A stretch of 64,000 nucleotides of DNA. It comes from an uncultured Planctomycetota bacterium (GTDB lineage Bacteria; Planctomycetota; PLA2; JAEUHO01). The notes beneath the pieces were generated by a model, which saw nothing but the letters and a program-made list of their open reading frames with translations, searched no databases and was not told the DNA's origin. Of the stretch, positions 23,816 to 36,609 are shown one piece after another. The first letter of the stretch is position 1. Every line of letters begins with the position of its first letter. Both the position numbers and the translations under genes were made by a program. The DNA lies in contig CAVVXN010000001.1 of NCBI GenBank assembly GCA_963752285.1, positions 448,001-512,000 of the forward strand, in the 5' to 3' direction.

Positions 23816-25741
23816 TCAGGGCGTTCCGGCGGCGAAGACCAGGCTCTCGGCGATCGAGTCCATCTCGGTGCCCAGGCGTGCGAGCGCCTCCGACGGGCCC
23901 ACGAACCGGACCACCGCGATGGCGTGCGCGGCCTCGCCCAGGTACAGGACGGCCTCCGACGGGTCGTCGGGCGCACCGCGCAGGCGGCCCGCCTCGTACT
24001 TGAAGCCGCGGTTCGCTCCGACGCGAATCGACACCCGCTTCGAGACGTCGAAGGAGGTGAACTGCGTCCCGAGGCCCGCCTCGATCAGGGGGAGCGCGTC
24101 GTCCAGCGGGAGCGGGGAGGCCTGGCGAACCACGACCCCGAGCACGCCGTCCTTCTCGAACTTCAGGGCCTCGCGGCTCGTCGCGGTCGTTTCCTGAGAG
24201 GTCCAACCCTCCGCGAGCGACACGCCGACGCCCTGGGACCGGTTCGCGAGGGACACCTGCGCCAGCGGGTCGGGCCGGTCGCTCGGGTCCCACCTGTCGC
24301 GGGGGTCCTTCTCGAAGCGGGTCTTCTCGAGCACGGACCACACCCGATCGAGCGTGGTCGCGTCGAGGCCGTCCACGAGGAACAGCGCGGCGCCGCGCGT
24401 CGCGAGGCGCCCCGCGCCGTACGCGCCCGTGTAGTCGGTCACGCGGTCGCCCGTGGTCGCTGCGCCGGCCGGCGTCGCGCGAAACGCGTCGCCGTCGCGC
24501 GCGCGGAGCGCGTCGAGGATCGCGTCCGAGGCCTCGCCCGCGTCCTCCACCGTGTCGAACGCGTACGTCTGGATCCACGCGAGGCGGCCGCCGTTCTCGA
24601 GGTACAGCGCGCGCCCCGCGTCCCATCCCTCTCCTGCCGCGAGGGCCCGGTCGCAGCAGTAGCGACCGCGCATGAGCAGGGGGAGGCTCAGGCGCCCGTG
24701 CGTGCCCCCGAGGAAGTAATCCAGGTACAGCGTGAGGTCGAGCTCGCCGTCGCTCGCCTCCTGGATCTTCTTCCATCCCTCGCCGGCGGCGGTAGCGAGA
24801 TCACCGCCCCACACGACCGTCTCGGGGTAGTCCTTGTTCTCGGTGCACCAGCGCTCGGGGTGGAGGTATTCCTCCTCGGAGACCGGCCCGTCGTCCCAGA
24901 GCTTCGCCATGCCGCCGGGGTAGTCGTCTCCGACCACCTGCGCGACGAGGCGCGGACCGACGTCGTAGTGCAGCATCGTCCCCACGATCATGTACGCGGG
25001 GACCTTCCTGAGGATCCGGAGCTGCTCCCGGGCCATCGCGGGGTCGGACTGCCGCTGCATGTAGGCGGCGGCGATGGCGGGATGGGTGTCCTGGTACATC
25101 ACGCGCGCGTGCTCGGCGCTGCCCTCGCCCAGACACTGCTCCGCGAAGAGGCGGTCGGGATCGTCCTTCCACCGCTCGGTGCGGGCATCGAGGTCAACGT
25201 ACTGGTCCTCGAGCGCGTGGATGAGCTCGTGGAGGATCACCGGGCGCTGGCCGTCACCCGTCATGCCCTCGACGATGTAGAGCGCCTTCTCCTTGGGGTT
25301 GTAGTAACCGGCGACCATCCCCTCGAGCATCTCGAGCTGCAGCGCGACGGGATCCTCGTCGGCGGCGAGGAGACCCATGCGCCTCAGGATCCTCGTGTCG
25401 CGCTGGAGGTCCTCGGGCGTCTCCTCCTCCTCCATCATCTGCTCGGCCTTCGCGCGGAACTGGGCGCGCGTGAGGAGGTCGGCCGGCACCGTCCGCTTCC
25501 ACGCGAGGCCACGGATCCGGGACGCCTCGTCGCGAAGCTCGTCCACCATCTTCTTGACCCCGGCGCGTTCGGCCTCGGACGGGCCCTCCGACCCGGCCGT
25601 CTCGGGCACGGGCGAAGTGGACGTCGCGCCCGCCGGCGGCGCCGACGGAGCGTCGGGCGGATCGTCGGCTCGGGCGCCGAGCGGAAGTCCCAGGAGGAGC
25701 GCGAGGGCGAGGAGGAGGGACAGCGTGCGGCGTCGGGGCAT
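23816..25741 (-). CDS. Exported HExxH putative zinc metallopeptidase with an extra C-terminal domain
   Basis: Signal peptide; GYYNP, ILHELIHALEDQ, GEGSA, PVSEEEYLHP. Confidence 0.75.
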   Translation of the reverse strand: MPRRRTLSLLLALALLLGLPLGARADDPPDAPSAPPAGATSTSPVPETAGSEGPSEAERAGVKKMVDELRDEASRIRGLAWKRTVPADLLTRAQFRAKAEQMMEEEETPEDLQRDTRILRRMGLLAADEDPVALQLEMLEGMVAGYYNPKEKALYIVEGMTGDGQRPVILHELIHALEDQYVDLDARTERWKDDPDRLFAEQCLGEGSAEHARVMYQDTHPAIAAAYMQRQSDPAMAREQLRILRKVPAYMIVGTMLHYDVGPRLVAQVVGDDYPGGMAKLWDDGPVSEEEYLHPERWCTENKDYPETVVWGGDLATAAGEGWKKIQEASDGELDLTLYLDYFLGGTHGRLSLPLLMRGRYCCDRALAAGEGWDAGRALYLENGGRLAWIQTYAFDTVEDAGEASDAILDALRARDGDAFRATPAGAATTGDRVTDYTGAYGAGRLATRGAALFLVDGLDATTLDRVWSVLEKTRFEKDPRDRWDPSDRPDPLAQVSLANRSQGVGVSLAEGWTSQETTATSREALKFEKDGVLGVVVRQASPLPLDDALPLIEAGLGTQFTSFDVSKRVSIRVGANRGFKYEAGRLRGAPDDPSEAVLYLGEAAHAIAVVRFVGPSEALARLGTEMDSIAESLVFAAGTP

Positions 25742-25966
25742 TTGCGTCTCCGATGTGGGCACGAGATGGGCCGATCGTACCCGCGCTGCATGCCTTGGCC
25801 AGGGTCCCATGGGGACGAAGTTGCGCGAATGTGTGCAGTTCCTCGGCACCAACCTGCCGAGTGCAAGTTCTGCCGCGCCATCCGTGCCGGCCGGCGACGA
25901 GGCCCGAGGTGCTGGCAAACTCACCCGTGCGACCCCCCCGGTGCGGGGCGCCGGGATGCCGCGACC

Positions 25967-26509
25967 TTGACCCTCACCACGCTCGACACGGTCGCGCTCG
26001 TCCTCGGCCTGGTGTTCGCGGTGCGCGGCGCGTTCAAGGGATTCGCGTGGCAGGCCGTGCGCCTGGTCGGTCTGGTCGCCGCGGCCTGGGCCGCCTTCGC
26101 GCTCCAGCCCCAGGTCGGCGGCTGGATCGCGACGCGCGTGTCTTTCGTCCCCGCGACCGTCGCACCCTGGGTGGCCTCGGTCCTGATCTTCGCGACGGTG
26201 TTTTTCGCCGCGACGCTCCTCGCGTGGACCGCGCGCGGCGCGCTCCGGGAGGTCCATCTGGGCGCCCCCGACCGCGTGCTCGGGTTCGCGTTCGGCGCCT
26301 TGACGGGGCTCGTCTGGCTGACCCTCGGGTTCTTCCTCTGGGGACACTTCTTCGCGAGCGACCAGACGATCGAGGACGCGCTTCGGGGATCGCGCTCGGG
26401 GCCGGCGATGTCCTGGCTCGTGAGCACGGTGGTGCCGCACCTGCCGCCCGAGGTCCGCGATCGATGGCACGCCGTGCTGGAGCAGCTCGACCGTCTGCCG
26501 AAACCGTGA
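25967..26509 (+). CDS. cvpA: CvpA (colicin V production) family membrane protein
   Basis: LD......FAVRGAFKGF, LGAPDRVLGFAFGALTG, about 4 TM segments. Confidence 0.8.
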   Translation: MTLTTLDTVALVLGLVFAVRGAFKGFAWQAVRLVGLVAAAWAAFALQPQVGGWIATRVSFVPATVAPWVASVLIFATVFFAATLLAWTARGALREVHLGAPDRVLGFAFGALTGLVWLTLGFFLWGHFFASDQTIEDALRGSRSGPAMSWLVSTVVPHLPPEVRDRWHAVLEQLDRLPKP

Positions 26510-26564
26510 CCTGGGACGGGCGTGGACCGCGCGTCGCCCGAACGGCGCGCGCCGCCCCCTCGTC

Positions 26565-27257
26565 CTACTCGTCCTCGACCACCTCGAAGCCGTCGGCCTC
26601 GAGGATCCGCCGGGGCGGCGCGTCGGGCTCGGGCTCCGGGCGCGGCGCGAGGTCGTCGGGCAGGGTCCACGCGCGCGGCGCCGCCCCCGCGACCTCCTTC
26701 GGGGCGGGCCGCGTCGCCGCCGGCGGGGGCGCGCGCCCCCGGTCGAGGTCGGTGACGTACTCCCAGCGCGACCACCCGGCGACCTCCGCGCGGCGCACGT
26801 CCGTCCTCTCCTTCGCGTCGTCGCCCGCCGGCTCGTCCTCTCGGGCGAGCAGGTCCACGAGGTCCGCGTCGTAGACCGTCTCGCCGTCCACGCGCAGCGC
26901 GGGCAGGACGCCTCGCGCGTCGAGCCCGGCGAGCCGCACGCGGTCGGCGGCGATCCGCCGTGCGGCCTCCTCCGCGGGGAGGAGCCGGTCGGCCGGGAGA
27001 CGCGTCCGGTCCCGCACGCTCCGTCCCGCGGTCCTCGACGCCGGCGCGAGGCGTTCGTTCCAGTAGAGCCGCAGCGCCTCTCCGTCGGCAGGGGCCCGCC
27101 CCGCCTGGGCGTCCACCCACGCGCGCGGCACCCTCATGCGCCCGTCGGCGGTCGTCCAGGGGATCCGGCGGGTCAGAGCGAGCCGCCGGAGCCGCCCGGG
27201 GCTCTCGAGGAGCAGGCGTCCCGCCCGCGGAAGGTCGTAGAGTTGGTCGGCGTCCAC
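26565..27257 (-). CDS. Protein with two MerR-like/HTH_17 (excisionase-type) DNA-binding repeats
   Basis: LYDLPRAGRLL..SPGRLRRLA..RRIP and LLPAEEAARRI..LDARGVLPALRVDG. Confidence 0.55.
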   Translation of the reverse strand: MDADQLYDLPRAGRLLLESPGRLRRLALTRRIPWTTADGRMRVPRAWVDAQAGRAPADGEALRLYWNERLAPASRTAGRSVRDRTRLPADRLLPAEEAARRIAADRVRLAGLDARGVLPALRVDGETVYDADLVDLLAREDEPAGDDAKERTDVRRAEVAGWSRWEYVTDLDRGRAPPPAATRPAPKEVAGAAPRAWTLPDDLAPRPEPEPDAPPRRILEADGFEVVEDE

Positions 27258-27331
27258 GAGGAGTCCGGTCCGAGGCCCACCCGGCCCCGGAGGAGAGTGT
27301 AAGGGCAGACCCCTCCGGGGCGGGAGCCGAC

Positions 27332-27931
27332 ATGTCGAGAAGGCATCTTCTGATCGTCGCGGCCGCCGTCGTCGCGGGCTGCAACACGACCCGCTCGAGC
27401 GCGTACCCGCCCGGCGGCGACGTCCTCCCGACCGTCTCCGGAGCCTCCGGCGCGACCTTCGCGGACGCCGCGTCCGCCCGGAACGCGTTCACGCGGTCGA
27501 ACGACACGATGACGGCCGCCCTCGAGGACTCGGCCTGGCTCCGTTTCGAGGGGGCCCCGGATACGGTGGCCGCGCGGCACCGCGCGTACTTCGATTACGG
27601 CTACACCACGTTTCGGGTGGACCTCTACAGCAAGACCTTCACCCAGCCGGTCAAGGAGACGTACGTGCTCGAGGACAGCGCGGGCGCCCGCTTTTCCGGC
27701 AGCCCGACCACGTGGACCGGGTCCGGTCGGCTCGAGGGGCAGCGGTACGTCTGCCACTTCGATCTCTCCTTCCCGCACGTACTGACCCGGGACGTGAAGT
27801 GGCTCAGGCTCACGCGTACCGCCGACGGCGGCACGCTCGAGTGGACGTTCGGGTCGCCGCCCGCGCCGGCGGCGACGGCCCCGCCGGTCGCCCCCGCCGG
27901 GCCGGTCGCCCCGGCGCCCGTCGCCCGGTGA
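27332..27931 (+). CDS. Hypothetical lipoprotein
   Basis: Signal ending in VVAGC lipobox; GGAG SD. Confidence 0.7.
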   Translation: MSRRHLLIVAAAVVAGCNTTRSSAYPPGGDVLPTVSGASGATFADAASARNAFTRSNDTMTAALEDSAWLRFEGAPDTVAARHRAYFDYGYTTFRVDLYSKTFTQPVKETYVLEDSAGARFSGSPTTWTGSGRLEGQRYVCHFDLSFPHVLTRDVKWLRLTRTADGGTLEWTFGSPPAPAATAPPVAPAGPVAPAPVAR

Positions 27932-27973
27932 GCGGCGCCCGGTGAACGGCGCCCGTCGTCCGCCGCGCGGGGC

Positions 27974-29197
27974 TCAGGCCTCCGCGCGGATCACGGTGCC
28001 GCGGGCCACGCGGTCGAGGATCTCCTCCAGCGGCCCGCCGTGGGGGACCGCGCGGATGCCGACCGCGCCGAGGAGGGTCACGGCGCGCGCAGGGAGGCTC
28101 GTCGCGACGAGCGCGCGCACGCCGACGAGCGCCGCCAGGAAGGCGGGAGCGTCGCCGACGCCGTCGTGCCGCCGGCGCGGGTCGAGCGGCAGCGGCCGCG
28201 CGCCCACGCAGCGGATCGTCTCCTCCGTGACGGCGTAGATGCGGAGCACGCTCGCGGCGTGGAGCGGCGTGTCCACCATCGTGCCGTCCGACGTGGCGAC
28301 CGCCACGAGGAGGGCGCGGCGCGGAGGCAGGATCGGCGGGGCCACCACACCCGTGGGGGCGTCGGGGACCTGGCGGAGCACGTCGAGCGCGTCGAGCACG
28401 TCGAGGTTCACGGGCTGCAGCCGCTCGGGACACATCCACTCGAGAGGGGAGGTCGCGGGGGCGTTTGCCGACGCCTCGTTCGCGACGCGCCGGACGAGCG
28501 CGCGGGCGCGCAGGAGCTCGTCGGCCGTCGGCCCGCTCGCGCGCGCGAGCGGCGCGGACCGCGAGGGCTGGTGCGGGCGCACGTCCACGCGGCGCGCGCC
28601 GGCCGCGAACGCGCGGCGCGCGATGGTCCCGATCTCGCGCGCGTTCACGGTCGGGATCAGCGTGATGCGCGCGGCGGCGGCGATGCCCACGCGCGCGGCG
28701 AGGCACAGCGCGCGCTCTCCCTCGTGGAGCATCAGGGCGGCCGCCTCGTCGCGGTCGATGTCGTCGCCGCGGAAGCGGGCGCCCGCCACCAGACGACGCG
28801 CGGTCGCGAAGGTCGCGGCGTCGCGCCGCACGACGAGGTAGCCCAGTCCGAACGCGAGGAACTCCTCCACGTACTCGGGGAGGAGCGGCCCGTCCACGAC
28901 GAGCCCCGTCACGACGTCGGGGTGGTGGTCCGCGAGGAGCGCGAGCGCGCGCAACACCGTCTCCGGGCTCGCGAGCGGGTCGCCCGGTCCCTCGATCTCG
29001 AGCGCGAGCGGGCCCTTCAGGACGCGGCGGGCGACGGCGACGTAGCGGAGGACGTCGGCGACGTCGGTCGCCGGCGCGGCGGGGTCGAACGGACGGTCTC
29101 GACGGAAGAGGCAGGGGTTCGGGGCGGCGGGGAGGACGAGGTGCCAGATGCCGAGCCGCGGCCCCGGATCGCGGAAGGGGGTGCCGTCCTGCTCGAT
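27974..29197 (-). CDS. Degenerate NifB-like protein (radical-SAM-like barrel without CxxxCxxC plus NifX-like domain); probable ATC start
   Basis: WHLVLPAAP, EGPGDPLA, GPLLPEYVEE, EAAALML, LIPTVN, PTADEL, VAVATSDG..V, GI....GPLEE, collinear with NifB. Confidence 0.7.
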   Translation of the reverse strand: MEQDGTPFRDPGPRLGIWHLVLPAAPNPCLFRRDRPFDPAAPATDVADVLRYVAVARRVLKGPLALEIEGPGDPLASPETVLRALALLADHHPDVVTGLVVDGPLLPEYVEEFLAFGLGYLVVRRDAATFATARRLVAGARFRGDDIDRDEAAALMLHEGERALCLAARVGIAAAARITLIPTVNAREIGTIARRAFAAGARRVDVRPHQPSRSAPLARASGPTADELLRARALVRRVANEASANAPATSPLEWMCPERLQPVNLDVLDALDVLRQVPDAPTGVVAPPILPPRRALLVAVATSDGTMVDTPLHAASVLRIYAVTEETIRCVGARPLPLDPRRRHDGVGDAPAFLAALVGVRALVATSLPARAVTLLGAVGIRAVPHGGPLEEILDRVARGTVIRAEA

Positions 29198-29314
29198 GGC
29201 CGTCTCCTGGGCGCTTGGGTGTACCGAAGGCCGCGGGGATCGGCAACCGGGCGGGGTGGGACGGGGATCGTGCGTGGGGTGGGCGGGGACGCGTCCCGCG
29301 AGTACAAGAGCGAC

Positions 29315-30127
29315 GTGGAAACGCCCGACCCCGCACCGACGCCGGCCCCCGGACACCCCGCTCCGCCTCCGGACCGCCGCCCGCGCTCGCGCCTCGCCGT
29401 GTGGGCGCTCGGGCTCTCCCTGGTCTTGATCGTGGCCACGATCCTCACCGGGTTCATGTGGGTGATGCTCGTCCCCGCCGTGCTCGTCTCGGGCTGGGCC
29501 ATCGCGACGATCCGGCCCGACGCGAAGCGAGGACAGGGCATGGCGATCGTTTCGCTGATCCTGTGCCTCCTCGCCGGCTCGTGCTCCTACTTCGGCGTGT
29601 CCACGCTCCACAACGTGCTCACGCACCTCGCGCGCGGCGTCCTGGGAGATCTCGAGCGCGAGCGGACCGAGGCTGCGCCTACGGAGGCGCCCGCGCCCGC
29701 CGGCGCCGACGAGGAGTCGAGCGACGCGAAGCCGACGCCCGTGGACCGCTGGTTCACGAAGGCGGCCGTGGAGAGCGGCGTCGCTGAGAACGTGCGAAAG
29801 CGCTACGCGGCGGTCCGGGAGAAGGTGGGGGCGTACGCCGGTGAGGTGTTGAAGGAGAGCCTCTGGCTCGGCGCCGGTCCGTACGTCGCGCCACCCACCG
29901 ACACCGAGGAGATCGGAGCGGGGATCGGCCCCAAGTGGGAGCTCGACTCGAGCCAGGTCACGTACTGGGTCCGCGTGCGGTGCGGCGACGAGGTGGTCCA
30001 CGTCGCGTTCCGGTTCGCCGAGGCGGACGAGGCCCTCTCCGGGTTCCAGCAGATCGCGTCCGGCGCGGGTCCTTCCTCGAAGCCCGCCCTGCTCCAGGAC
30101 GTGCGTTTCTTCCGCGCCGGGAAGTAG
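29315..30127 (+). CDS. DUF4190-like membrane protein with a periplasmic C-terminal domain
   Basis: Pro-rich N-terminus, SRLAVWALGLSL, AIATIR...RGQGMAIVSLIL. Confidence 0.65.
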   Translation: METPDPAPTPAPGHPAPPPDRRPRSRLAVWALGLSLVLIVATILTGFMWVMLVPAVLVSGWAIATIRPDAKRGQGMAIVSLILCLLAGSCSYFGVSTLHNVLTHLARGVLGDLERERTEAAPTEAPAPAGADEESSDAKPTPVDRWFTKAAVESGVAENVRKRYAAVREKVGAYAGEVLKESLWLGAGPYVAPPTDTEEIGAGIGPKWELDSSQVTYWVRVRCGDEVVHVAFRFAEADEALSGFQQIASGAGPSSKPALLQDVRFFRAGK

Positions 30128-30151
30128 GGGCGGGAGGGCCGCCGCCCGCGC

Positions 30152-30203
30152 GGGGCGCGCGGGGCGCGCGGGGCGCCCGGGGCGCCCGGGGCGCCGTCCG
30201 GGG
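30152..30203 (+). repeat. 9-bp-period GGGGCGC(G/C)C tandem repeat; six GGGG tracts with G-quadruplex potential
   Basis: GGGG at 30152, 30161, 30170, 30179, 30188 and 30200, in intergenic DNA. Confidence 0.75.
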
Positions 30204-30244
30204 CGGGCGCGCCGCGTACACTTGTCGCCCCTGGGAGCCCCCTC

Positions 30245-31969
30245 ATGACGCGACGCACGCCGCTTCTCGTCCTCCTCCTCCTCGTGGGGACGCCCCCCGT
30301 CTGGGCGCGGCTCGACGCGAAGGACTGGAAGGACGTGGAGGAGCGTGCGAACCACCTCTTCGGGTCGGCGGGCCACCGCGCGGAGAAGGCCGAGGTCCTC
30401 ACGAAGCTCCTCGAGGACGACGACCGGCGGTCGTGGAAGGTCCTCGCCGACGCGGTGGTGAAGGAGGCGGAGACCTGGGTCGTCTCGGAGCGGACGCGGC
30501 AGAAGCTCGAGAGCGACATCCAGGAGATCCAGTCGAAGACGATGGCCCAGCGCCATCCGGACGACCAGGCGCATCTGCTCTCCTGGCGGGCACAGCTCCA
30601 GGACCTCGACGTCCAGGTCCGCGACCAGCGCGGCGCCCTCGGCGACGTGACCGACGCCGTCGCGGAGGGTCCCGCCGCGCTCCGCCAGAACCTGCTCTCG
30701 CGCGCGAAGTCCAGCAAGGAGTGGGCGGTGCGCGCCGCCGCCGTGCGTGTCTCGGCGGCGCACCTCGACGAGAAGGAGTGCGCCGAGGTGTTCCTCCGCG
30801 GGATCGAGAAGGACCCGGACCCCCGCGTGCGCATGGCGGGCCTCGACGCGCTTCGCGTCCTCAGGGACCGGCTGGGCGGCGGCGAGACGATCCCGGCAGG
30901 CGACGGGACGCCGCCAGCCGGCGCCGGCGACCCGCCCGCAGGCGACGCCACGCCGCCGAAGCCGGCCGTCAAGGGCACGTCGCTCGACCAGGTGGAGGCC
31001 CTGATCCTCGGGCGGCTGGCCGATCCCGACTGGGGCGTCCAGCTCGTCGCGGTCCACGTCGTGACGGAGGCCAAGCTCACGCGCGCCGTGCCGCACCTGA
31101 TCAATGCGCTCTCGGTCGCGAACCCGCGGATGGCCGAGGCGATCGGCGACGCGCTCCGCACGCTCACCGGCCAGAACTTCGATCCCTTCGCGGACGTGTG
31201 GGCGCACTGGTGGGAGGAGCACAAGGGCGACTTCCAGTCCGCCGAGCACGTGAAGGGGGACCGGAGCCAGCGCGCGGCGTGGGACGCCCACTTCTACGGC
31301 CTCCCCGTCAAGTCCGATCGCGTCCTCTTCATCCTCGACACGTCCGACTCGATGAAACTCAAGACGACGAACGAGAACCCGGCCGCGAAGTGGAAGCAGC
31401 GCGGCCCGATCACCGGTGAGGGCGTCCCCCCGCCGCCGCCGCCGCCCGAGGAGATCCTGAGCGGCCCGAAGATCGAGGTGGCGAAGCACGAGATCAAGAA
31501 GGCCCTGAAGAAGCTGAAGAAGAACGCGAAGTTCGACATCATCGCCTTCAACAGCGCCGTCACGGCGTGGAAGGACCAGATGATGGACGCGTCGGACAAG
31601 AACGTCGCGGACGCCCTGACCTGGATGGACGAGATGAAGCCGGTCGGCAGCACGTACGTGGACGGCGCGCTCCGCCTGGGCTTCCGCATCGCGGGCCTCG
31701 GCGCGACGGACAAGGCGTACCCCGAGGTCAACGTGGACACGATCATCCTGCTCTCCGACGGAGCCCCCACCGAAGGCGACTCGGGGAAGGCGGACGGATC
31801 GGGCGTGGTCAAGAGCATGGACCCCGAGGTCGTTCTCCAGCACGTGCGCGAGTGGAACCAGTACAAGCGCGTCGTCATCAACTGCATCGGCGTGGACCCG
31901 GCGCCGGGCGTCACCGAGTTCCTCCAGAAGCTCGCGACGGAGAACGGCGGGATCTACATTGACCGATGA
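30245..31969 (+). CDS. Exported HEAT-repeat + VWA domain protein
   Basis: Signal peptide, HEAT-like repeats (WAVRAAA, DPRVRMA, DPDWGVQ), FYGLPV..DRVLFILDTSDSM, LLSDGAPT. Confidence 0.85.
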   Translation: MTRRTPLLVLLLLVGTPPVWARLDAKDWKDVEERANHLFGSAGHRAEKAEVLTKLLEDDDRRSWKVLADAVVKEAETWVVSERTRQKLESDIQEIQSKTMAQRHPDDQAHLLSWRAQLQDLDVQVRDQRGALGDVTDAVAEGPAALRQNLLSRAKSSKEWAVRAAAVRVSAAHLDEKECAEVFLRGIEKDPDPRVRMAGLDALRVLRDRLGGGETIPAGDGTPPAGAGDPPAGDATPPKPAVKGTSLDQVEALILGRLADPDWGVQLVAVHVVTEAKLTRAVPHLINALSVANPRMAEAIGDALRTLTGQNFDPFADVWAHWWEEHKGDFQSAEHVKGDRSQRAAWDAHFYGLPVKSDRVLFILDTSDSMKLKTTNENPAAKWKQRGPITGEGVPPPPPPPEEILSGPKIEVAKHEIKKALKKLKKNAKFDIIAFNSAVTAWKDQMMDASDKNVADALTWMDEMKPVGSTYVDGALRLGFRIAGLGATDKAYPEVNVDTIILLSDGAPTEGDSGKADGSGVVKSMDPEVVLQHVREWNQYKRVVINCIGVDPAPGVTEFLQKLATENGGIYIDR

Positions 31970-32723
31970 GCGTTCGACCGCGGACGGCGAGGCGGCCGAC
32001 GCGCAGGACGACGAGACGGGCGCACCGCCGTCCGCGCCATCCCGGGCGCCGCCGCGCGTCCCGGGGTCCTGGATCCGGGTCGCGCGCGTCGGGGGCGTCC
32101 CGCTCTTCGTCGATCCCCTGCTGCCGCTGCTCCTCGTGCTCCTCGCGTGGGTCGGCCTCCCCGGGCAGTCCCTGCTCCGCTCCCTCTTCGGGTTCGCGGT
32201 GCTCCTCGCCTTGGTCGCGGTCCACGAGGCCGCACACGCGGGGATGGCCCGGCGCCGCGGCCTTTGCGTCGGCGGCATCTACCTCCACCTCCTGCCCGCG
32301 GCCTACGTGGAGGCCGGCACCCCGAGCGACGAGTGGCGCGTCGCGCTGGCCGGCCCGGTCGTGAACCTCGTCCTCGGCGGGTTGCTGCTCGTGGCCCGCG
32401 CGGCGACCGGTCCGCTCCCGCGGACCGCCGTGGACTGGGCCGCGGACCCCCTCGCCCTGGCCGCGGGCGCGAGCCTCGCGATGGGGGTTCTGAACCTCGT
32501 GCCCGTGCTGCCCGCCGACGGGGGACGCGTGGTCCGCGCGCTCCTCGAGCAGCGGTACGGACGACGCGCCGGCCGCCGGGCCGTCGGCGTCCTCGGGATC
32601 CTGCTCGGCGGCGGCGGCGCCCTCGCCGCCTGGTTCGGGCTGGGGCGCCCGCTCGGCACCTGGGTCGCGGCGCTGGCGATCTACGCGGCCTGGGTCTCGG
32701 GGCGCGAGCTGGTCCGCTCCTGA
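31959..32723 (+). CDS. Site-2 protease, M50 family
   Basis: VHEAAH, ALAGPVVN, NLVPVLPADGG. Confidence 0.88.
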   Translation: MTDERSTADGEAADAQDDETGAPPSAPSRAPPRVPGSWIRVARVGGVPLFVDPLLPLLLVLLAWVGLPGQSLLRSLFGFAVLLALVAVHEAAHAGMARRRGLCVGGIYLHLLPAAYVEAGTPSDEWRVALAGPVVNLVLGGLLLVARAATGPLPRTAVDWAADPLALAAGASLAMGVLNLVPVLPADGGRVVRALLEQRYGRRAGRRAVGVLGILLGGGGALAAWFGLGRPLGTWVAALAIYAAWVSGRELVRS

Positions 32724-32754
32724 GCGGGGCGCGGGACGGGGCGGGACGGTTCGT

Positions 32755-34788
32755 TCAGCGGACCGCGACCACGGTCGCCGCCGCGCCGGTGTTCCCGTCG
32801 GCGTCTCGCGACTGAACGACGACGTCGTGCGGTCCCGCAGGCGGCAGATCGAGCTCGGCCTGGTACGTCTCGGTCGCCTCGTCGAGGAGGCCGTCCGTCG
32901 AGGCGAGCACCTGCCAGGGACCGCCGTCGATCGACACGCGGATCTCGGCCACCCGGCCGCCCTGCTGGTCCTCGACCTCGCCCTCCAGGAGGAGGTGACC
33001 CTTCGAGGGACGGGCACGGACCGTGACGCGCGGGGGCGTGTTGTCGATCCGGTGCGGGGTCGAGACGAGCGTCGTCTCACGCGCGGAGGACGGCGGGTTG
33101 TCGGGACGGTCCGACACCGTGAGGCGGACCACGTACATCCCGTCGGGGAGCCCCGACGTGTCCCACGCGTACGTCGGCTTGTCGAGCACCTCGTCCTTGA
33201 CGAGTCGCATCCAGTGGGGCGAGCCGACGCGGTTCGCCTCGAGCCGGACGAGCAGGCGGTCCTCGTCGGGGTCGTCCACCTTCCACGTGACCGTGCGGGC
33301 CGGCGTGGGGTCGGGAATCCCACTGTCGTTCGACTTCCCGGCGCGCTTCACCTCGAGCTCGTTGATCTTGGGCGCGCGGTTCGGCGACGCGACCACGACC
33401 CGCAGGCCGCGGAGCTCCGCGTCGCCTCCGTCCAGGGTCGCCCGAAGCTGGAGGAAGCGGCCCTCGAGGTCCGCGGCGCCGCTCGCGCCGTCGAAGCCCC
33501 GGATCGGCTTCCACGCGGACCACGCGTCACCCGGGTCGTCCGTCTCTCCCGCGCGGGCCTCGACCGACTTGATCCCCGATCCCACGACGCTCACCCGGCC
33601 CCAGTGCGCGACCGCGCCCGCGTCGAGGCGCTTCGTCGTGAACGTGCCCGAGGGCGCGCCGGCCTTGGCCCGGTGGAGGACGGCGGGGTTGCTGGTGACG
33701 ACCGCGAGGAACTTCGACTCCGCGCCGGAGAGGATCACGCTGACCTCCGCCTCGGGGAAGTCGGCGAGGATCGCCGGGGCGCGCCCGGTCGTCACGCGGA
33801 CGAGCCGGCCCTCGGGGTACGTGCCCACGACCGCGCCGTCGCCGTCGGCCGCCATCGAGAGCGCGGCCACCCGCTTCTCCTCCCACAGCGTCTCGACCGC
33901 GCCGCTCTTCTCGACGTGGAGCACCACGCCGCTCTGGAGCGACGGGCGCGGGGGCGCCTTCTTCTGCCCGTTCTGCGCGGGCGGAATGTTCATCATCTGG
34001 TTGAGGAGGTTCGAGAGCGTCTGCGGGTTCCCGCCGGCCTGGTCCTGGTTCGCCGCGATGAGGAGGCTCCCGTCCGGCTCCGTGACGAGCCCGACCACCT
34101 CCTGCGCATCGAGGTCGCGGACGACGCTCGACTCGTGACCCCGGACGGACAGGACGAGCCCCTTCGGCGAGGTGCCCACGAGGATCTCGTCGCCGCGCCG
34201 GGCGAGGCACCGCGCGTGGTCGTCGCCGACGTCGAGGATCTTCTCGACCGCGCCGAACGCGTCCACGTGCCACAGGGCGCCCGGCACCCCGCTCGCCGCC
34301 ACGAGTCCACCCCGCGCGTCGGGGAGCAGCGCCCACACGTACTCCGCGGGGATCGAGGCCAGGGGCTTCGCCGTGCCGCCCGCCTCCGCCGTGACCAGGC
34401 GCGCCCCCGGCGCGAGCGCGGCGGCGACCCTCCCTTCGGGGAGGGGGGCGAGCGCAGTCACCATGAGCGCGTCGCCGCCCGTCGCGACGCGTTCGACCTT
34501 GCCAGCCGCGTCCACGCGGAGGAGCTCGCCGCCGTTCCCGGTGCCGACCCAGGTGTCGTCGCCCACCTGGATCGCGGTCCAGGAGGTCGGCGTGTCCAGG
34601 TCCACGGCCTCGAATGCGGGCCCCGGCCGGAGCACGCCGTCGTCCGCGAGGGAGAGCGACGTCCACTCTCCGTCGGCGAACGTCTTCTGGCCCGAGACCT
34701 CCTCGACGTGCGGAGCCGCGGCGATCGCGGCGCGCCCGAGGAACGCCAGGGCCCCGAGGGCGAAGGCGCAGAGGATCCGACGACGCAT
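32755..34788 (-). CDS. Exported beta-propeller protein with C-terminal Ig/FN3-like domains
   Basis: Signal peptide, repeated propeller-like blades (WVGTGNGG, YVWAL, VGTSPKG, VGTYPEG), WDTSGLPDGMY, IDNTPP. Confidence 0.7.
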   Translation of the reverse strand: MRRRILCAFALGALAFLGRAAIAAAPHVEEVSGQKTFADGEWTSLSLADDGVLRPGPAFEAVDLDTPTSWTAIQVGDDTWVGTGNGGELLRVDAAGKVERVATGGDALMVTALAPLPEGRVAAALAPGARLVTAEAGGTAKPLASIPAEYVWALLPDARGGLVAASGVPGALWHVDAFGAVEKILDVGDDHARCLARRGDEILVGTSPKGLVLSVRGHESSVVRDLDAQEVVGLVTEPDGSLLIAANQDQAGGNPQTLSNLLNQMMNIPPAQNGQKKAPPRPSLQSGVVLHVEKSGAVETLWEEKRVAALSMAADGDGAVVGTYPEGRLVRVTTGRAPAILADFPEAEVSVILSGAESKFLAVVTSNPAVLHRAKAGAPSGTFTTKRLDAGAVAHWGRVSVVGSGIKSVEARAGETDDPGDAWSAWKPIRGFDGASGAADLEGRFLQLRATLDGGDAELRGLRVVVASPNRAPKINELEVKRAGKSNDSGIPDPTPARTVTWKVDDPDEDRLLVRLEANRVGSPHWMRLVKDEVLDKPTYAWDTSGLPDGMYVVRLTVSDRPDNPPSSARETTLVSTPHRIDNTPPRVTVRARPSKGHLLLEGEVEDQQGGRVAEIRVSIDGGPWQVLASTDGLLDEATETYQAELDLPPAGPHDVVVQSRDADGNTGAAATVVAVR

Positions 34789-34836
34789 GGGCTTTCCTCC
34801 CGGCATCTCCTGACGGCTCTGAGCCACGCGCGACCG

Positions 34837-36609
34837 TCAGCGTTCGACGTCGAAGACGACCGTGGCCTGGCCATCGACGATGTAGGGGACGTCCCGCCGC
34901 ACCTTCTCGGTGACGGGCTCGAGCTGGGCGCCCGTGCTGTCGTTCGAGCGCGCGAGGCGCGGCAGCGCGGAGAGCGGCACGTTCCGAACGAGGTGTCCGC
35001 CCATGTCGAGGTTCACGCGTCCGGTGGGCACGACGGCGATCAGCTCCGTGCTCTTGTAGAACGCCGCGTACAGCTTCGGGATGTCCTGGACGTCCACGGG
35101 GTTCGCGACCTCGGCGGGAACCATGTCGCCGCCCGTGACGAGGACGGGGAGGCCGCCGGCGGGCGCGTCGGTCGGGATTCGGAGCTTCACGCGCTCGTAG
35201 AAGATCCCGCCGTTCTCCCGGCGCCGGAGCCGTGCGAGCACCTCCACCTCGTCCCCGGGGTGCACCGATTCGCGCGAGGCGGACGCGGCCTCGATCGTGC
35301 ACCTCCGGTCCACGTTCTCGATCTCGACCGAGAGCTTCACCCACTCGAACTCGGCGCGCTCGGTCGGGTGGATCATGACCCGGTCTACGAGGCCCATGAG
35401 GATGCGGGAGAGCCCCGTGTCGAAGCCGGCGATGGTGTCCTCGTAGGACCACGGCTTCTCGACCCCGGCGAGCTTCACCTGGATCGTGTAGCGCTTGCTG
35501 TTGGCCCCGAGCGTGCCCTCCGACCTCGACATCATGTCGCGCAGGGCGATGAACATCATCCGTTGGAAGAAGCTGCGATTCGCGGTGATCTCGACGTGGA
35601 ACGACTCCTTCCGTCCCGTGACCGCGTTCGAGATGTCCACGTCGAACGGCACCATGGGCGCGGTCTTGCCGCGAACGCCGATGATGCCGGCGTCGCGGTC
35701 CTGGATCAGCGCGCCCACGTCGCGGATCGACGCGCCCAGCTTGAAGGAGATCTCCACGCTGGGGACCACCGTGTAGACGTACCCGACGCTCATCGGGAAG
35801 AGCGTCTCTCCCATCCCGATGAAGGGGTGGCCGAACGCGAGGATCTTGTCGCCCTCGATCCAGGTGCACGTGCCGACCGCCGCGACGTTCAGATCGCCGC
35901 GGATCAGGTCCACCACGAGCGCGGAGCCCGGGACGAGCGGCGCGTCCAGGTTCGCCCAGCCGCCGGGTGCGCCGGCGACGAGGCCCCCGCTGACCGTGTG
36001 GGGGTCGAAACCGTACGGCTCCATCGCCGCGGCGATCTCGGCGCGGCCCTTCGCCGTGAATCCGCCGATGGCCAGCGGCGTGGCGATGGGGACGAGCTCC
36101 TTCGCGTCGGCGCCGATCGGCACGGGCGGTCGCTGGCGCAGCGGGGTAGGGGGCTCCGCGCCCGAGGCGCGGCCCTCGAGGGGGCGGTCGGCCTCGGCCA
36201 GCATCGTCTCGATCGGGGTGATCCCCGCCAGCGGCTCCTTCGACCAGGCCCACGTGTAGGAGAGCGCCCCGACCACGCGCCCGTCGATGTACATCGGCGA
36301 TCCGGACATGCCCTGGGCGACGCCCAACCGGGCCAGGTCGTCGCCGAGGCACCGGACGAGGATCACGTCCTCCTTCGCGAGGTAGTGGTGGATGACGTCG
36401 ATCACCTCGACGGGGAAGCGCGTCGTCTTCGTCGCGGAGAGGACCGTGACCACCTCGCCCTTGAGGCCCGGCCGGATGTCCCGGAGCGGGAAGATCGAGT
36501 CGTGGCGGGACGGGGCGGCCTCCGGCGGGTCCTCGCCCGCGCCGGCCGGGCCGACGCCCGCGAGGACGAGGAGCGCAAGGACAGAGGCAGGCAGGCGGAA
36601 GGTCGGCAT
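34837..36609 (-). CDS. SpoIVB peptidase S55 domain protein
   Basis: DIRPGLKG, GVAQGMSGSPMYIDGRVVGALS, GTCTW..GDKILAFGHPF, SFKLG. Confidence 0.88.
   Translation of the reverse strand: MPTFRLPASVLALLVLAGVGPAGAGEDPPEAAPSRHDSIFPLRDIRPGLKGEVVTVLSATKTTRFPVEVIDVIHHYLAKEDVILVRCLGDDLARLGVAQGMSGSPMYIDGRVVGALSYTWAWSKEPLAGITPIETMLAEADRPLEGRASGAEPPTPLRQRPPVPIGADAKELVPIATPLAIGGFTAKGRAEIAAAMEPYGFDPHTVSGGLVAGAPGGWANLDAPLVPGSALVVDLIRGDLNVAAVGTCTWIEGDKILAFGHPFIGMGETLFPMSVGYVYTVVPSVEISFKLGASIRDVGALIQDRDAGIIGVRGKTAPMVPFDVDISNAVTGRKESFHVEITANRSFFQRMMFIALRDMMSRSEGTLGANSKRYTIQVKLAGVEKPWSYEDTIAGFDTGLSRILMGLVDRVMIHPTERAEFEWVKLSVEIENVDRRCTIEAASASRESVHPGDEVEVLARLRRRENGGIFYERVKLRIPTDAPAGGLPVLVTGGDMVPAEVANPVDVQDIPKLYAAFYKSTELIAVVPTGRVNLDMGGHLVRNVPLSALPRLARSNDSTGAQLEPVTEKVRRDVPYIVDGQATVVFDVER

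Follow-up and report, generated by a model that had tools for sequence, protein, structure and literature searches.

A NifB-derived, putatively cluster-free protein family kept without nitrogenase genes in one family of Planctomycetota

NifB is among the most oxygen-sensitive and specialised of the radical S-adenosylmethionine (SAM) enzymes. The identities of its iron-sulfur (Fe-S) cluster ligands are given in PMC10114646, and its sequence motifs, including the ExRP plug loop and TxTxN, are listed in PMC8287671. According to PMC13128457, NifX holds NifB-co in a positively charged pocket where H35 ligates it, and PF02579 members lacking this histidine exist, namely NifY and NafX. The gene considered here occupies positions 27974..29197 on the minus strand of a 64,000-nucleotide stretch of DNA (hereafter the window; contig CAVVXN010000001.1, positions 448,001 to 512,000, assembly GCA_963752285.1) from an uncultured planctomycete, and encodes a Cys-less NifB-like protein of 407 residues. 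Judged from sequence, this protein represents a family that is NifB-derived, cluster-free, nif-independent and lineage-defining, and that is separate from, and more stripped than, a Cys-less NifB-like clade of Thermodesulfobacteriota. It is probably a functional, clade-specific descendant of NifB, in which the former cluster/SAM cavity has been rebuilt to bind a small polar or anionic molecule, and which acts as a stand-alone housekeeping protein.

The first-pass annotation, made from the letters of the window, described a frame collinear with NifB and ending in a NifX-like domain, and this architecture is borne out by profile and fold comparisons, which match NifB far beyond chance. All of the NifB motifs it listed are present at checked positions in the translation of 27974..29197 (-), with HLVLPAAPNPCLF at residues 19-31, GPGDPLA at 70-76, LIPTVN at 180-185, PTADEL at 223-228 and VAVATSDG at 298-305, and GPLLPEYVEE, EAA and LEEILDRVARG are found there as well. 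In the Pfam search, PF02579 (Nitro_FeMo-Co) is recognised at residues 305-397 above its gathering score (E 1.7e-7; 31.9 bits against 26.3), and no match to PF04055 (Radical_SAM) appears in the window protein at E <= 1. The NCBIfam nifB model (TIGR01290) aligns to residues 65-208 through profile positions 81-224 only and remains below its cut-off (E 1.6e-16; 60.1 bits against 343.65). When a profile of the family alone (A2, an alignment of 47 members that includes no true NifB) is compared with 177,635 sequences of the PDB, only NifB and NifX match, with E-values of 9.8e-24 for 6y1x, about 4e-21 for 7bi7, 7jma and 7jmb, and 6.7e-5 for NifX 9ian. The stronger values given by another profile, A1 (6e-51), were discarded as inflated, because A1 contained two true NifB.

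The AlphaFold2 model calculated from A2 has a mean predicted local distance difference test score (pLDDT) of 88.1 and a predicted template-modelling score (pTM) of 0.66, and it is poorly determined at residues 1-13 and 277-287 only. With this predicted model as query, Foldseek ranks four NifB entries first, at E 1.9e-15 (7jma) to 2.1e-14 and a root-mean-square deviation (rmsd) of 1.8-2.9 over 220-234 columns, the TM-score for 7jma being 0.90 when normalised to the target; the next radical SAM enzyme follows at 2.6e-8, seven orders weaker than NifB. VIA-align superposes model residues 13-266 on NifB 7jmb_A with Z 26.5 and an rmsd of 2.6 over 235 residues, the runner-up being PFL-AE (Z 18.6), and superposes residues ~270-407 on NafY (Z 12.5), 2re2 (Z 12.5), MJ0327 (Z 11.8) and the orange protein 2wfb (Z 11.6; rmsd 2.6 over 105 residues). 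The model thereby indicates that a NifB-type partial barrel fold is present. By the AlphaFold2 model, VIA-align, Foldseek and the family profile, a radical-SAM-type (beta/alpha)6 partial barrel, closest to NifB, is assigned to 28463..29158 (-; residues ~14-245), a linker to 28313..28462 (-; residues 246-295) and the NifX-like (PF02579) domain to 27998..28312 (-; residues 296-400).

While the layout of NifB is retained, the residues that make NifB a metalloenzyme are gone. Columns were compared across 32 canonical NifB, 25 proteins of the other Cys-less clade and the 47 planctomycete family members, and 77 of them are conserved in at least 85% of NifB. The planctomycete family keeps 21 of these 77, including GPGD..A (70-76), P93, G103, P182, N185, G200, P223 and several positions of the NifX domain, and every column that holds a Cys or His ligand is substituted or deleted. 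The radical SAM Cys columns, 100% Cys in the 32 NifB, are occupied in the 47 family members by P28 (94%) or R32 (98%), or by a gap (98%). The reported absence of CxxxCxxC is correct: the window reads PAAPNPCLFRRDR, whose single Cys is not conserved, and C...C..C occurs nowhere in the translation. In place of Cx3Cx2C, the former [4Fe-4S] loop is a Pro/Arg-rich stretch, HLVLPAAPNPCLFRRDRPFD (29084..29143, -; residues 19-38), and the ExRP plug loop that should follow it is deleted, its columns being gaps in 98% of the family. Where NifB has HPC, family members have either nothing or varying residues, in the Cys column as elsewhere, and the strand His column is variable too, with H in the window protein and T or R in others. 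The K1 Cys column, in the C-x-S-T-N-G stretch of NifB, is G98 in 94% of the family, and TxTxN is replaced by V-x-R124-x-D126. Furthermore, both of the C-terminal losses that had been noticed hold across the family. All eight conserved columns of the K2-ligand stretch Cx2CRxDAxG are variable or gapped, this stretch being replaced by the linker, which carries family-conserved W254, R259 and LPPRR and the low-confidence loop 277-287; and H35 of NifX 9ian_E, the residue of the NifX HFG motif, lies opposite a variable column (Pro in 47%; P311 in the window protein), so that the NifX-like domain has no cofactor-binding His. Such a His is diagnostic of cofactor carriers, not of PF02579 proteins in general.

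The cysteines that the window protein does have, at 29, 165, 256 and 330, are none of them conserved among relatives. The sole signature motif of NifB to be kept is GPGDPLA (AGPG / 'GGE'; 28970..28990, -; residues 70-76), of which G70, P71, G72 and D73 are invariant in 47/47 family members and in NifB. Lacking the Fe-S ligands of all three sets as well as the plug loop and the NifX His, the protein as read from its translation cannot be a radical SAM enzyme, and would neither cleave SAM reductively, nor synthesise NifB-co, nor hold NifB-co in the manner of NifX. Covalent binding of a cluster looks unlikely as well, because the NifX His that ligates NifB-co is also lost. An unconventional radical SAM enzyme, with a cluster ligated by residues other than Cys, might be argued for from the invariance of GPGD(P)LA, which is the SAM-amino-group motif, and from the weak precomputed PF04055 match, of unstated strength, attached to 59 of 115 homologues. 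Such an enzyme is nevertheless highly improbable: no family member has three Cys, the near-invariant Cys of the family (position 360) sits in the NifX-like domain and is Val in the window protein, and the window protein itself lacks a PF04055 match at the threshold given above. Moreover, we know of no [4Fe-4S] radical SAM cluster without Cys ligands.

The absence of nitrogenase goes well beyond the window. The observation that nifHDK and nifEN are missing from these 64 kb extends, by genome search, to the whole genome of 4.64 Mb (5 contigs, 89% complete), which has no nifH over the cut-off, no PF00148 protein and no second NifB-like gene above noise, and in which PF02579 is found only in this gene. 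Among the 29 genomes of the same GTDB family (55-96% complete), PF00148 over the cut-off is found in 0/29 and nifH (E <= 1e-20) in 0/29. All of these are metagenome-assembled genomes (MAGs), whose incompleteness limits what single genomes can tell, not the family-wide pattern. By these searches, the designation 'orphan', given at first for the window, is valid for the whole clade. Since the gene is kept in every sampled genome of a family without nitrogenase, it must have another job.

The distribution of the gene is equally sharp. A word-indexed protein search returned 120 sequences, 115 of which are homologues at E <= 1.6e-71 (45-100% identity, ~360-490 aa), and the next are five true NifB at E 5.8e-9 or weaker; wherever the source states the organism of the 115, it is Planctomycetota. 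In the databases they go by names such as 'nitrogen fixation protein NifB', 'radical SAM protein', 'NifB/NifX family molybdenum-iron cluster-binding protein' and 'hypothetical protein'. In an exhaustive search of representative sequences, the 8 clusters at E <= 1e-30 all belong to the planctomycete family, the rest being 1e-16 or weaker. Searched with the family profile, 27 of the 28 other GTDB species genomes of the family contain exactly one stop-free match, at E 1e-156 or better, and the match in the 28th ends at a contig end (E 1e-49). Counting the window's own genome, the gene is thus single-copy in 29/29 genomes of one GTDB family of Planctomycetota, which span 16 genera and include MAGs only 55-57% complete, and the profile matches 0/11 genomes of the sister family. 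In a sample of 401 genomes from the phylum, strong matches are confined to the window's family, and true NifB are among the 19 weaker ones (E 1e-7 to 1e-30) outside it. Other families of the phylum (f40, f14, f7) carry canonical NifB with all motifs, and at locus L055 (G171:C1:3270585-3274325) the NifB, which has HPC, Cx3Cx2C and Cx2CRxD, is adjoined by a nitrogenase-type open reading frame (ORF) that looks NifK/NifN-like by sequence. Going by these matches, diazotrophy genes exist in the phylum Planctomycetota but not in the window's family.

The gene is under selection rather than in decay. The A2 alignment has 48 invariant columns across its 47 sequences, and the Nei-Gojobori ratios of nonsynonymous to synonymous substitution (dN/dS) for the four closest pairs, 0.053, 0.078, 0.107 and 0.165, are those of purifying selection and not of neutral decay, which was the outcome named beforehand as fatal to a functional gene. 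A decaying pseudogene, or a relic of a lost nif cluster, could be entertained because the catalytic residues are all lost, nif genes are absent and dN/dS in distant pairs reaches 0.9; yet it was rejected and has next to no chance of being correct, as the frame is intact in all 29 genomes and 16 genera, the invariant columns and close-pair ratios are as just given, the AlphaFold2 model is confident and the residues that replaced those of NifB are themselves conserved. The first-pass idea of a repurposed, non-radical NifB derivative holds in so far as the protein is NifB-derived (by profile and fold), non-radical (by its lost ligands) and under selection (by dN/dS); the roles offered with it, a SAM- or cluster-binding scaffold or sensor, are candidate ones.

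What the protein does instead is suggested by the residues that took the place of the NifB Cys, Thr and Asn. These are 81-98% conserved in the family (P28, R32, G98, D102, P104, R124, D126, R177 and D205). The strands of the barrel are predicted at residues 17-22, 64-68, 96-101, 120-124, 173-180 and 203-208, and charged residues lie at or just after their C-terminal ends, namely R32, R33 and D34 after beta1, D73 after beta2, D102 after beta3, R124 and D126 at beta4, R177, with N185, at beta5, and D205 in beta6. At the strand ends beta3-beta6 (28571..28900, -), the family-specific D102, R124, D126, R177, N185 and D205 stand where NifB has N, T, N, N, N and N. (Beta/alpha) barrels carry their binding or active sites at the C-terminal ends of the strands, and because the conserved Arg and Asp sit there, a cluster-free pocket is favoured. 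A burst of change on the long stem of the family would have rebuilt the former cluster/SAM cavity, and the near-invariant Arg and Asp at the mouth of the barrel would now line a pocket that needs no cluster and takes up some small molecule, polar or anionic, with the barrel serving as a binding or acid-base module. The NifX-like domain, with its Arg-rich loops, would form a second, electrostatic module for binding or docking.

The same residues can be read as those of a new enzyme. The barrel would then have been re-tooled for acid/base catalysis without Fe-S, perhaps as a hydrolase, an isomerase or a transferase whose substrate is a phosphorylated or carboxylated metabolite, in which Asp102, Asp126 and Asp205 are catalytic or bind a metal and Arg32, Arg124 and Arg177 clamp an anion. 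A near-invariant charged residue at the C-terminal end of nearly every barrel strand would suit such an enzyme, a long stem followed by tight conservation fits neofunctionalisation, and the gene is found in every sampled genome of the family. Against this, neither fold search places any cluster-free barrel enzyme above the radical SAM enzymes and the gene has no metabolic operon context, and this alternative is accordingly held to be somewhat unlikely.

The NifX-like domain gives rise to another proposal, by analogy. The protein may be a non-covalent carrier or store of an anionic inorganic species, such as a thiometallate, a polysulfide or an Fe-S or Mo-S cluster, held electrostatically by this domain with no Cys or His as ligand. 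Its match to the orange protein 2wfb and to NafY is in line with this. PMC6345978 describes non-covalent binding of S2MoS2CuS2MoS2 by Orp8, and binding of thioferrate through a cationic tail by IssA, which belongs to the same family. These serve as precedents, as does the positively charged NifB-co pocket of NifX (again from PMC13128457). R334, a conserved residue in NifB too, is kept in the domain, and to this residue the family adds Arg-rich motifs, DPRRRxDGVG (with its PRRR) and LDRVARG in the domain and LPPRR in the linker, all of them invariant. Nonetheless, no metal-trafficking genes are nearby, the cluster-ligating His of NifX is lost and the overall isoelectric point is not basic in most members (5.3-9.4, 7 checked), which makes a carrier an improbable though not far-fetched reading.

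A number of points weigh against the favoured reading of a functional, cluster-free descendant of NifB with a rebuilt pocket. The pocket is deduced from sequence positions and predicted secondary structure, and the Arg and Asp might do no more than pair up in salt bridges and so occupy the space left empty. Over all 378 pairs, dN/dS has a median of 0.51 and a maximum of 0.92, and between the window and the orthologous loci L024 and L028-L030 it is 0.85-0.92. The distant-pair values are held to be unreliable, because synonymous differences plateau at 0.3-0.5 with GC content at third codon positions (GC3) of ~0.95, a sign of saturation, and the one partner that differs in composition, L031 (59% GC), has a dS of 2.3 and an omega of 0.25; still, constraint may be relaxed in parts of the protein. 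The family genomes are, without exception, uncultured MAGs. The family's only near-invariant Cys, at 360 in the NifX-like domain (98% of the family, 94% of NifB and 96% of the Desulfo-type clade), is Val in the window protein (28118-28120, -). No in-frame ATG, GTG or TTG lies between the GTG at 29356 and a GTG near 28957, and the start has two candidates. Finally, the whole ~20-kb block around the gene is syntenic throughout the family, and adjacency of genes within it therefore carries little functional weight.

The long stem is seen in a maximum-likelihood tree from a quick search, with 74 hand-picked rows (12 of the 47 family members, 32 canonical NifB, 25 Cys-less and 5 partial-Cys proteins), no outgroup and a midpoint root. 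The planctomycete family forms a single clade (SH-aLRT 100), and the branch leading to it, which spans the midpoint root, measures ~2 substitutions per site (1.57 + 0.42), the median terminal branch being 0.7. It joins between canonical NifB and the other Cys-less clade, nested in neither, and its ancestor may have been of either kind. A long stem with a short crown would fit a burst of change followed by constraint. The second Cys-less clade consists of proteins of ~380 aa in which the Cys loop has become a stretch of the 'LPVAPxxxARxRF' type and in which GPGDPL and the NifX HLGQA are kept. The ESM Atlas holds a 356-member 'NifB/NifX family' cluster of this second type, mostly from Thermodesulfobacteriota, and otherwise returned only clusters of the NifB type, with no functional lead. 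At the two loci examined (L047, 8698-9978, +; L050, 8435-9625, +), the Cys-less NifB paralogue stands directly after nifH-nifI1-nifI2-nifD-nifK. Both paralogues, which come from Desulfobacterota-type MAGs, have an N-terminal run of three consecutive Cys, and genes for a 100-aa ORF, a GNAT and a HEPN protein lie downstream.

At the level of the gene, the 407-aa frame had been placed at the end of a long ORF, 27974..32278. The 407-aa frame is real and the 1434-aa ORF is an artefact of 75% GC: the window has a GC content of 71-77%, as a result of which long open frames occur on all strands. The GC3 coding signal of the minus strand extends from 27974 to ~29251 only, and beyond it the plus strand codes (29345-30127 and 30203-31969). 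For most of its length the 1434-aa frame 27974-32278 (-) runs opposite three plus-strand genes, and no giant gene is encoded there. Within the 407-aa frame, which ends in a stop codon at 27974-27976 and is delimited by translation and GC3, codon usage is normal, as had been noted, with GC3 of 0.93-0.96 as in neighbouring genes.

The candidate starts are the codon at 29197, which is ATC and not a canonical start, and the GTG at 29354..29356 (-), which is used by the 460-aa database gene call P0002 and whose extra 53 residues are not conserved. Residues 14-80 must be translated, because they are conserved with the family, and orthologues start no more than a few codons away from the counterpart of 29197. 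An AGGAG resembling a Shine-Dalgarno sequence (29204..29208, -; -11..-7) stands 6 nt upstream of ATC 29197, which is weak evidence, as most orthologues are without the motif; a similar arrangement, AAGGAGG-N5-ATC, is seen in L015. Initiation may therefore be non-canonical, at the ATC of 29197.

Farther upstream, 21-49 nt from codon 29197, is a promoter-like element, TTGCCG-N17-TACAC(C), at 29219..29246 (-). The pattern TTGNNN-N16-18-TA[CG]AC, which is the analysis's own and looser than the stricter sigma-70 consensus, occurs within 150 nt upstream in 16/27 orthologous loci against 25/5094 background windows of 180 nt (0.5%), and the element at 29246..29219 is one of only two matches to it in the 64-kb window. 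A scan of 27700-29600 with sigma-70 and terminator consensus patterns gave 0 sites, and the conserved element was not called by it. The element (TTGCnn-N17-(G)TACAC) could be a promoter, or an operator common with the divergent membrane-protein gene. If it is a promoter, the upstream GTG would be off the transcript and ATC 29197 would be the start.

On one flank lies a divergent gene for a DUF4190-like membrane protein (~29393-30127, +), followed by genes for a HEAT/VWA protein and an M50-type protease, and on the other is a convergent gene for a small unannotated protein that ends at 27931 (+). Farther out are genes for a 230-aa unknown protein, CvpA, a putative metallopeptidase or surface protein (Hvo_1808-like) and an S55 peptidase. 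Gene order is kept in most of the 27 orthologous loci, and 23816-36609 is strongly syntenic across the family, with S55 (SpoIVB-like), a 690-aa unknown protein, M50, HEAT+VWA, DUF4190, CvpA and the Hvo_1808-like putative metallopeptidase; no known system name emerged for this block. PADLOC assigned 0 families to the gene and its three neighbours, and among NCBIfam and Pfam matches to the neighbours none is tied to Fe-S, SAM or nif.

From this arrangement, it could be supposed that the protein is a non-catalytic structural or regulatory partner of its envelope neighbours, namely the DUF4190 membrane protein, the HEAT/VWA protein and the M50 protease. Most of the 27 loci have the divergent order [M50][HEAT-VWA][membrane protein] <-> [NifB-like], and the membrane protein is found in 18/28 family genomes versus 0/11 sister-family genomes. 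On the other hand, adjacency is uninformative where an entire 20-kb block is syntenic, and two neighbours were found in 18/28 family genomes (0/11 in the sister family) versus 28/28 for the NifB-like gene, a count that is to be read in the light of single, fast-evolving proteins having served as queries. The neighbours also evolve much faster, at 27-41% identity against 45-69%, and such a partnership has little to recommend it. A stand-alone cytoplasmic housekeeping protein of the clade is the most likely role, because a conserved promoter-like element belongs to this gene and neither of the adjacent genes runs in its direction.

As to novelty, the view that such a protein had not been described agrees with the literature searched and needs qualification for the databases: no paper was found on either Cys-less clade, in a literature search that lay mostly outside subscription journals, while more than 100 members are already deposited, mislabelled. 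It is possible, if on balance doubtful, that in one planctomycete lineage the NifB scaffold was converted to an Fe-S-free enzyme or small-molecule receptor, with a new Arg/Asp active site in the old cluster/SAM cavity, and then came to be present in all sampled genomes of that lineage. If true, this would document how the fold of a metallo-radical enzyme evolved anew, once nitrogen fixation had been lost, for chemistry that needs no cofactor. That a descendant of NifB has shed all three clusters and is still kept in every sampled genome of a non-diazotrophic clade shows that the scaffold is reusable. In practical terms, labels such as 'NifB', 'radical SAM protein' or 'molybdenum-iron cluster-binding protein' are misleading and can make planctomycete MAGs look falsely like those of nitrogen fixers. 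With the nif-linked Thermodesulfobacteriota clade counted in, there are two natural series of 'dead NifB', the comparison of which could separate the parts needed for folding and docking from those needed for chemistry, and the identity of the ligand would give a function to the lineage-defining gene of an uncultured planctomycete family.

Among known systems, HemW, a haem chaperone and a radical SAM relative turned helper that still binds a [4Fe-4S] cluster and SAM, shares with the planctomycete family the reuse of a radical SAM scaffold for a non-radical role, but it is not NifB-derived. With NifX, NafY, NifY, NafX, the orange protein (ORP) and IssA, all of the PF02579 'Di-Nase' fold, the likeness is in the C-terminal domain, which superposes on NafY, 2re2, MJ0327 and ORP; unlike in the NifX-type proteins, the planctomycete domain follows a dead NifB barrel in one fused protein, carries DPRRRxDGVG and LDRVARG as invariant motifs peculiar to it and resides in hosts without nitrogenase, and no ORP-type neighbours were seen near the gene. 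The Cys-less clade of Thermodesulfobacteriota shares the NifB fold, the lack of Cx3Cx2C and Cx2CRxD, GPGDPL and a C-terminal PF02579 domain, whereas it keeps the HLGQA His, 26 of the 77 NifB columns and a place in the nif operon (L047, L050), and the planctomycete family has neither the His, nor nifK, nor any nif context. NifB itself (TIGR01290; 6Y1X, 7BI7, 7JMA/7JMB) is by far the best match in sequence and fold and shares the two-domain order, GPGD(P)LA, the IPxxN turn, the P-T-x-x-E stretch and the 21 of 77 columns, while HPC, Cx3Cx2C, ExRP, TxTxN, Cx2CRxDAxG, the K1 His and Cys and the NifX-domain His, all present in NifB, have been lost without exception from the planctomycete family.

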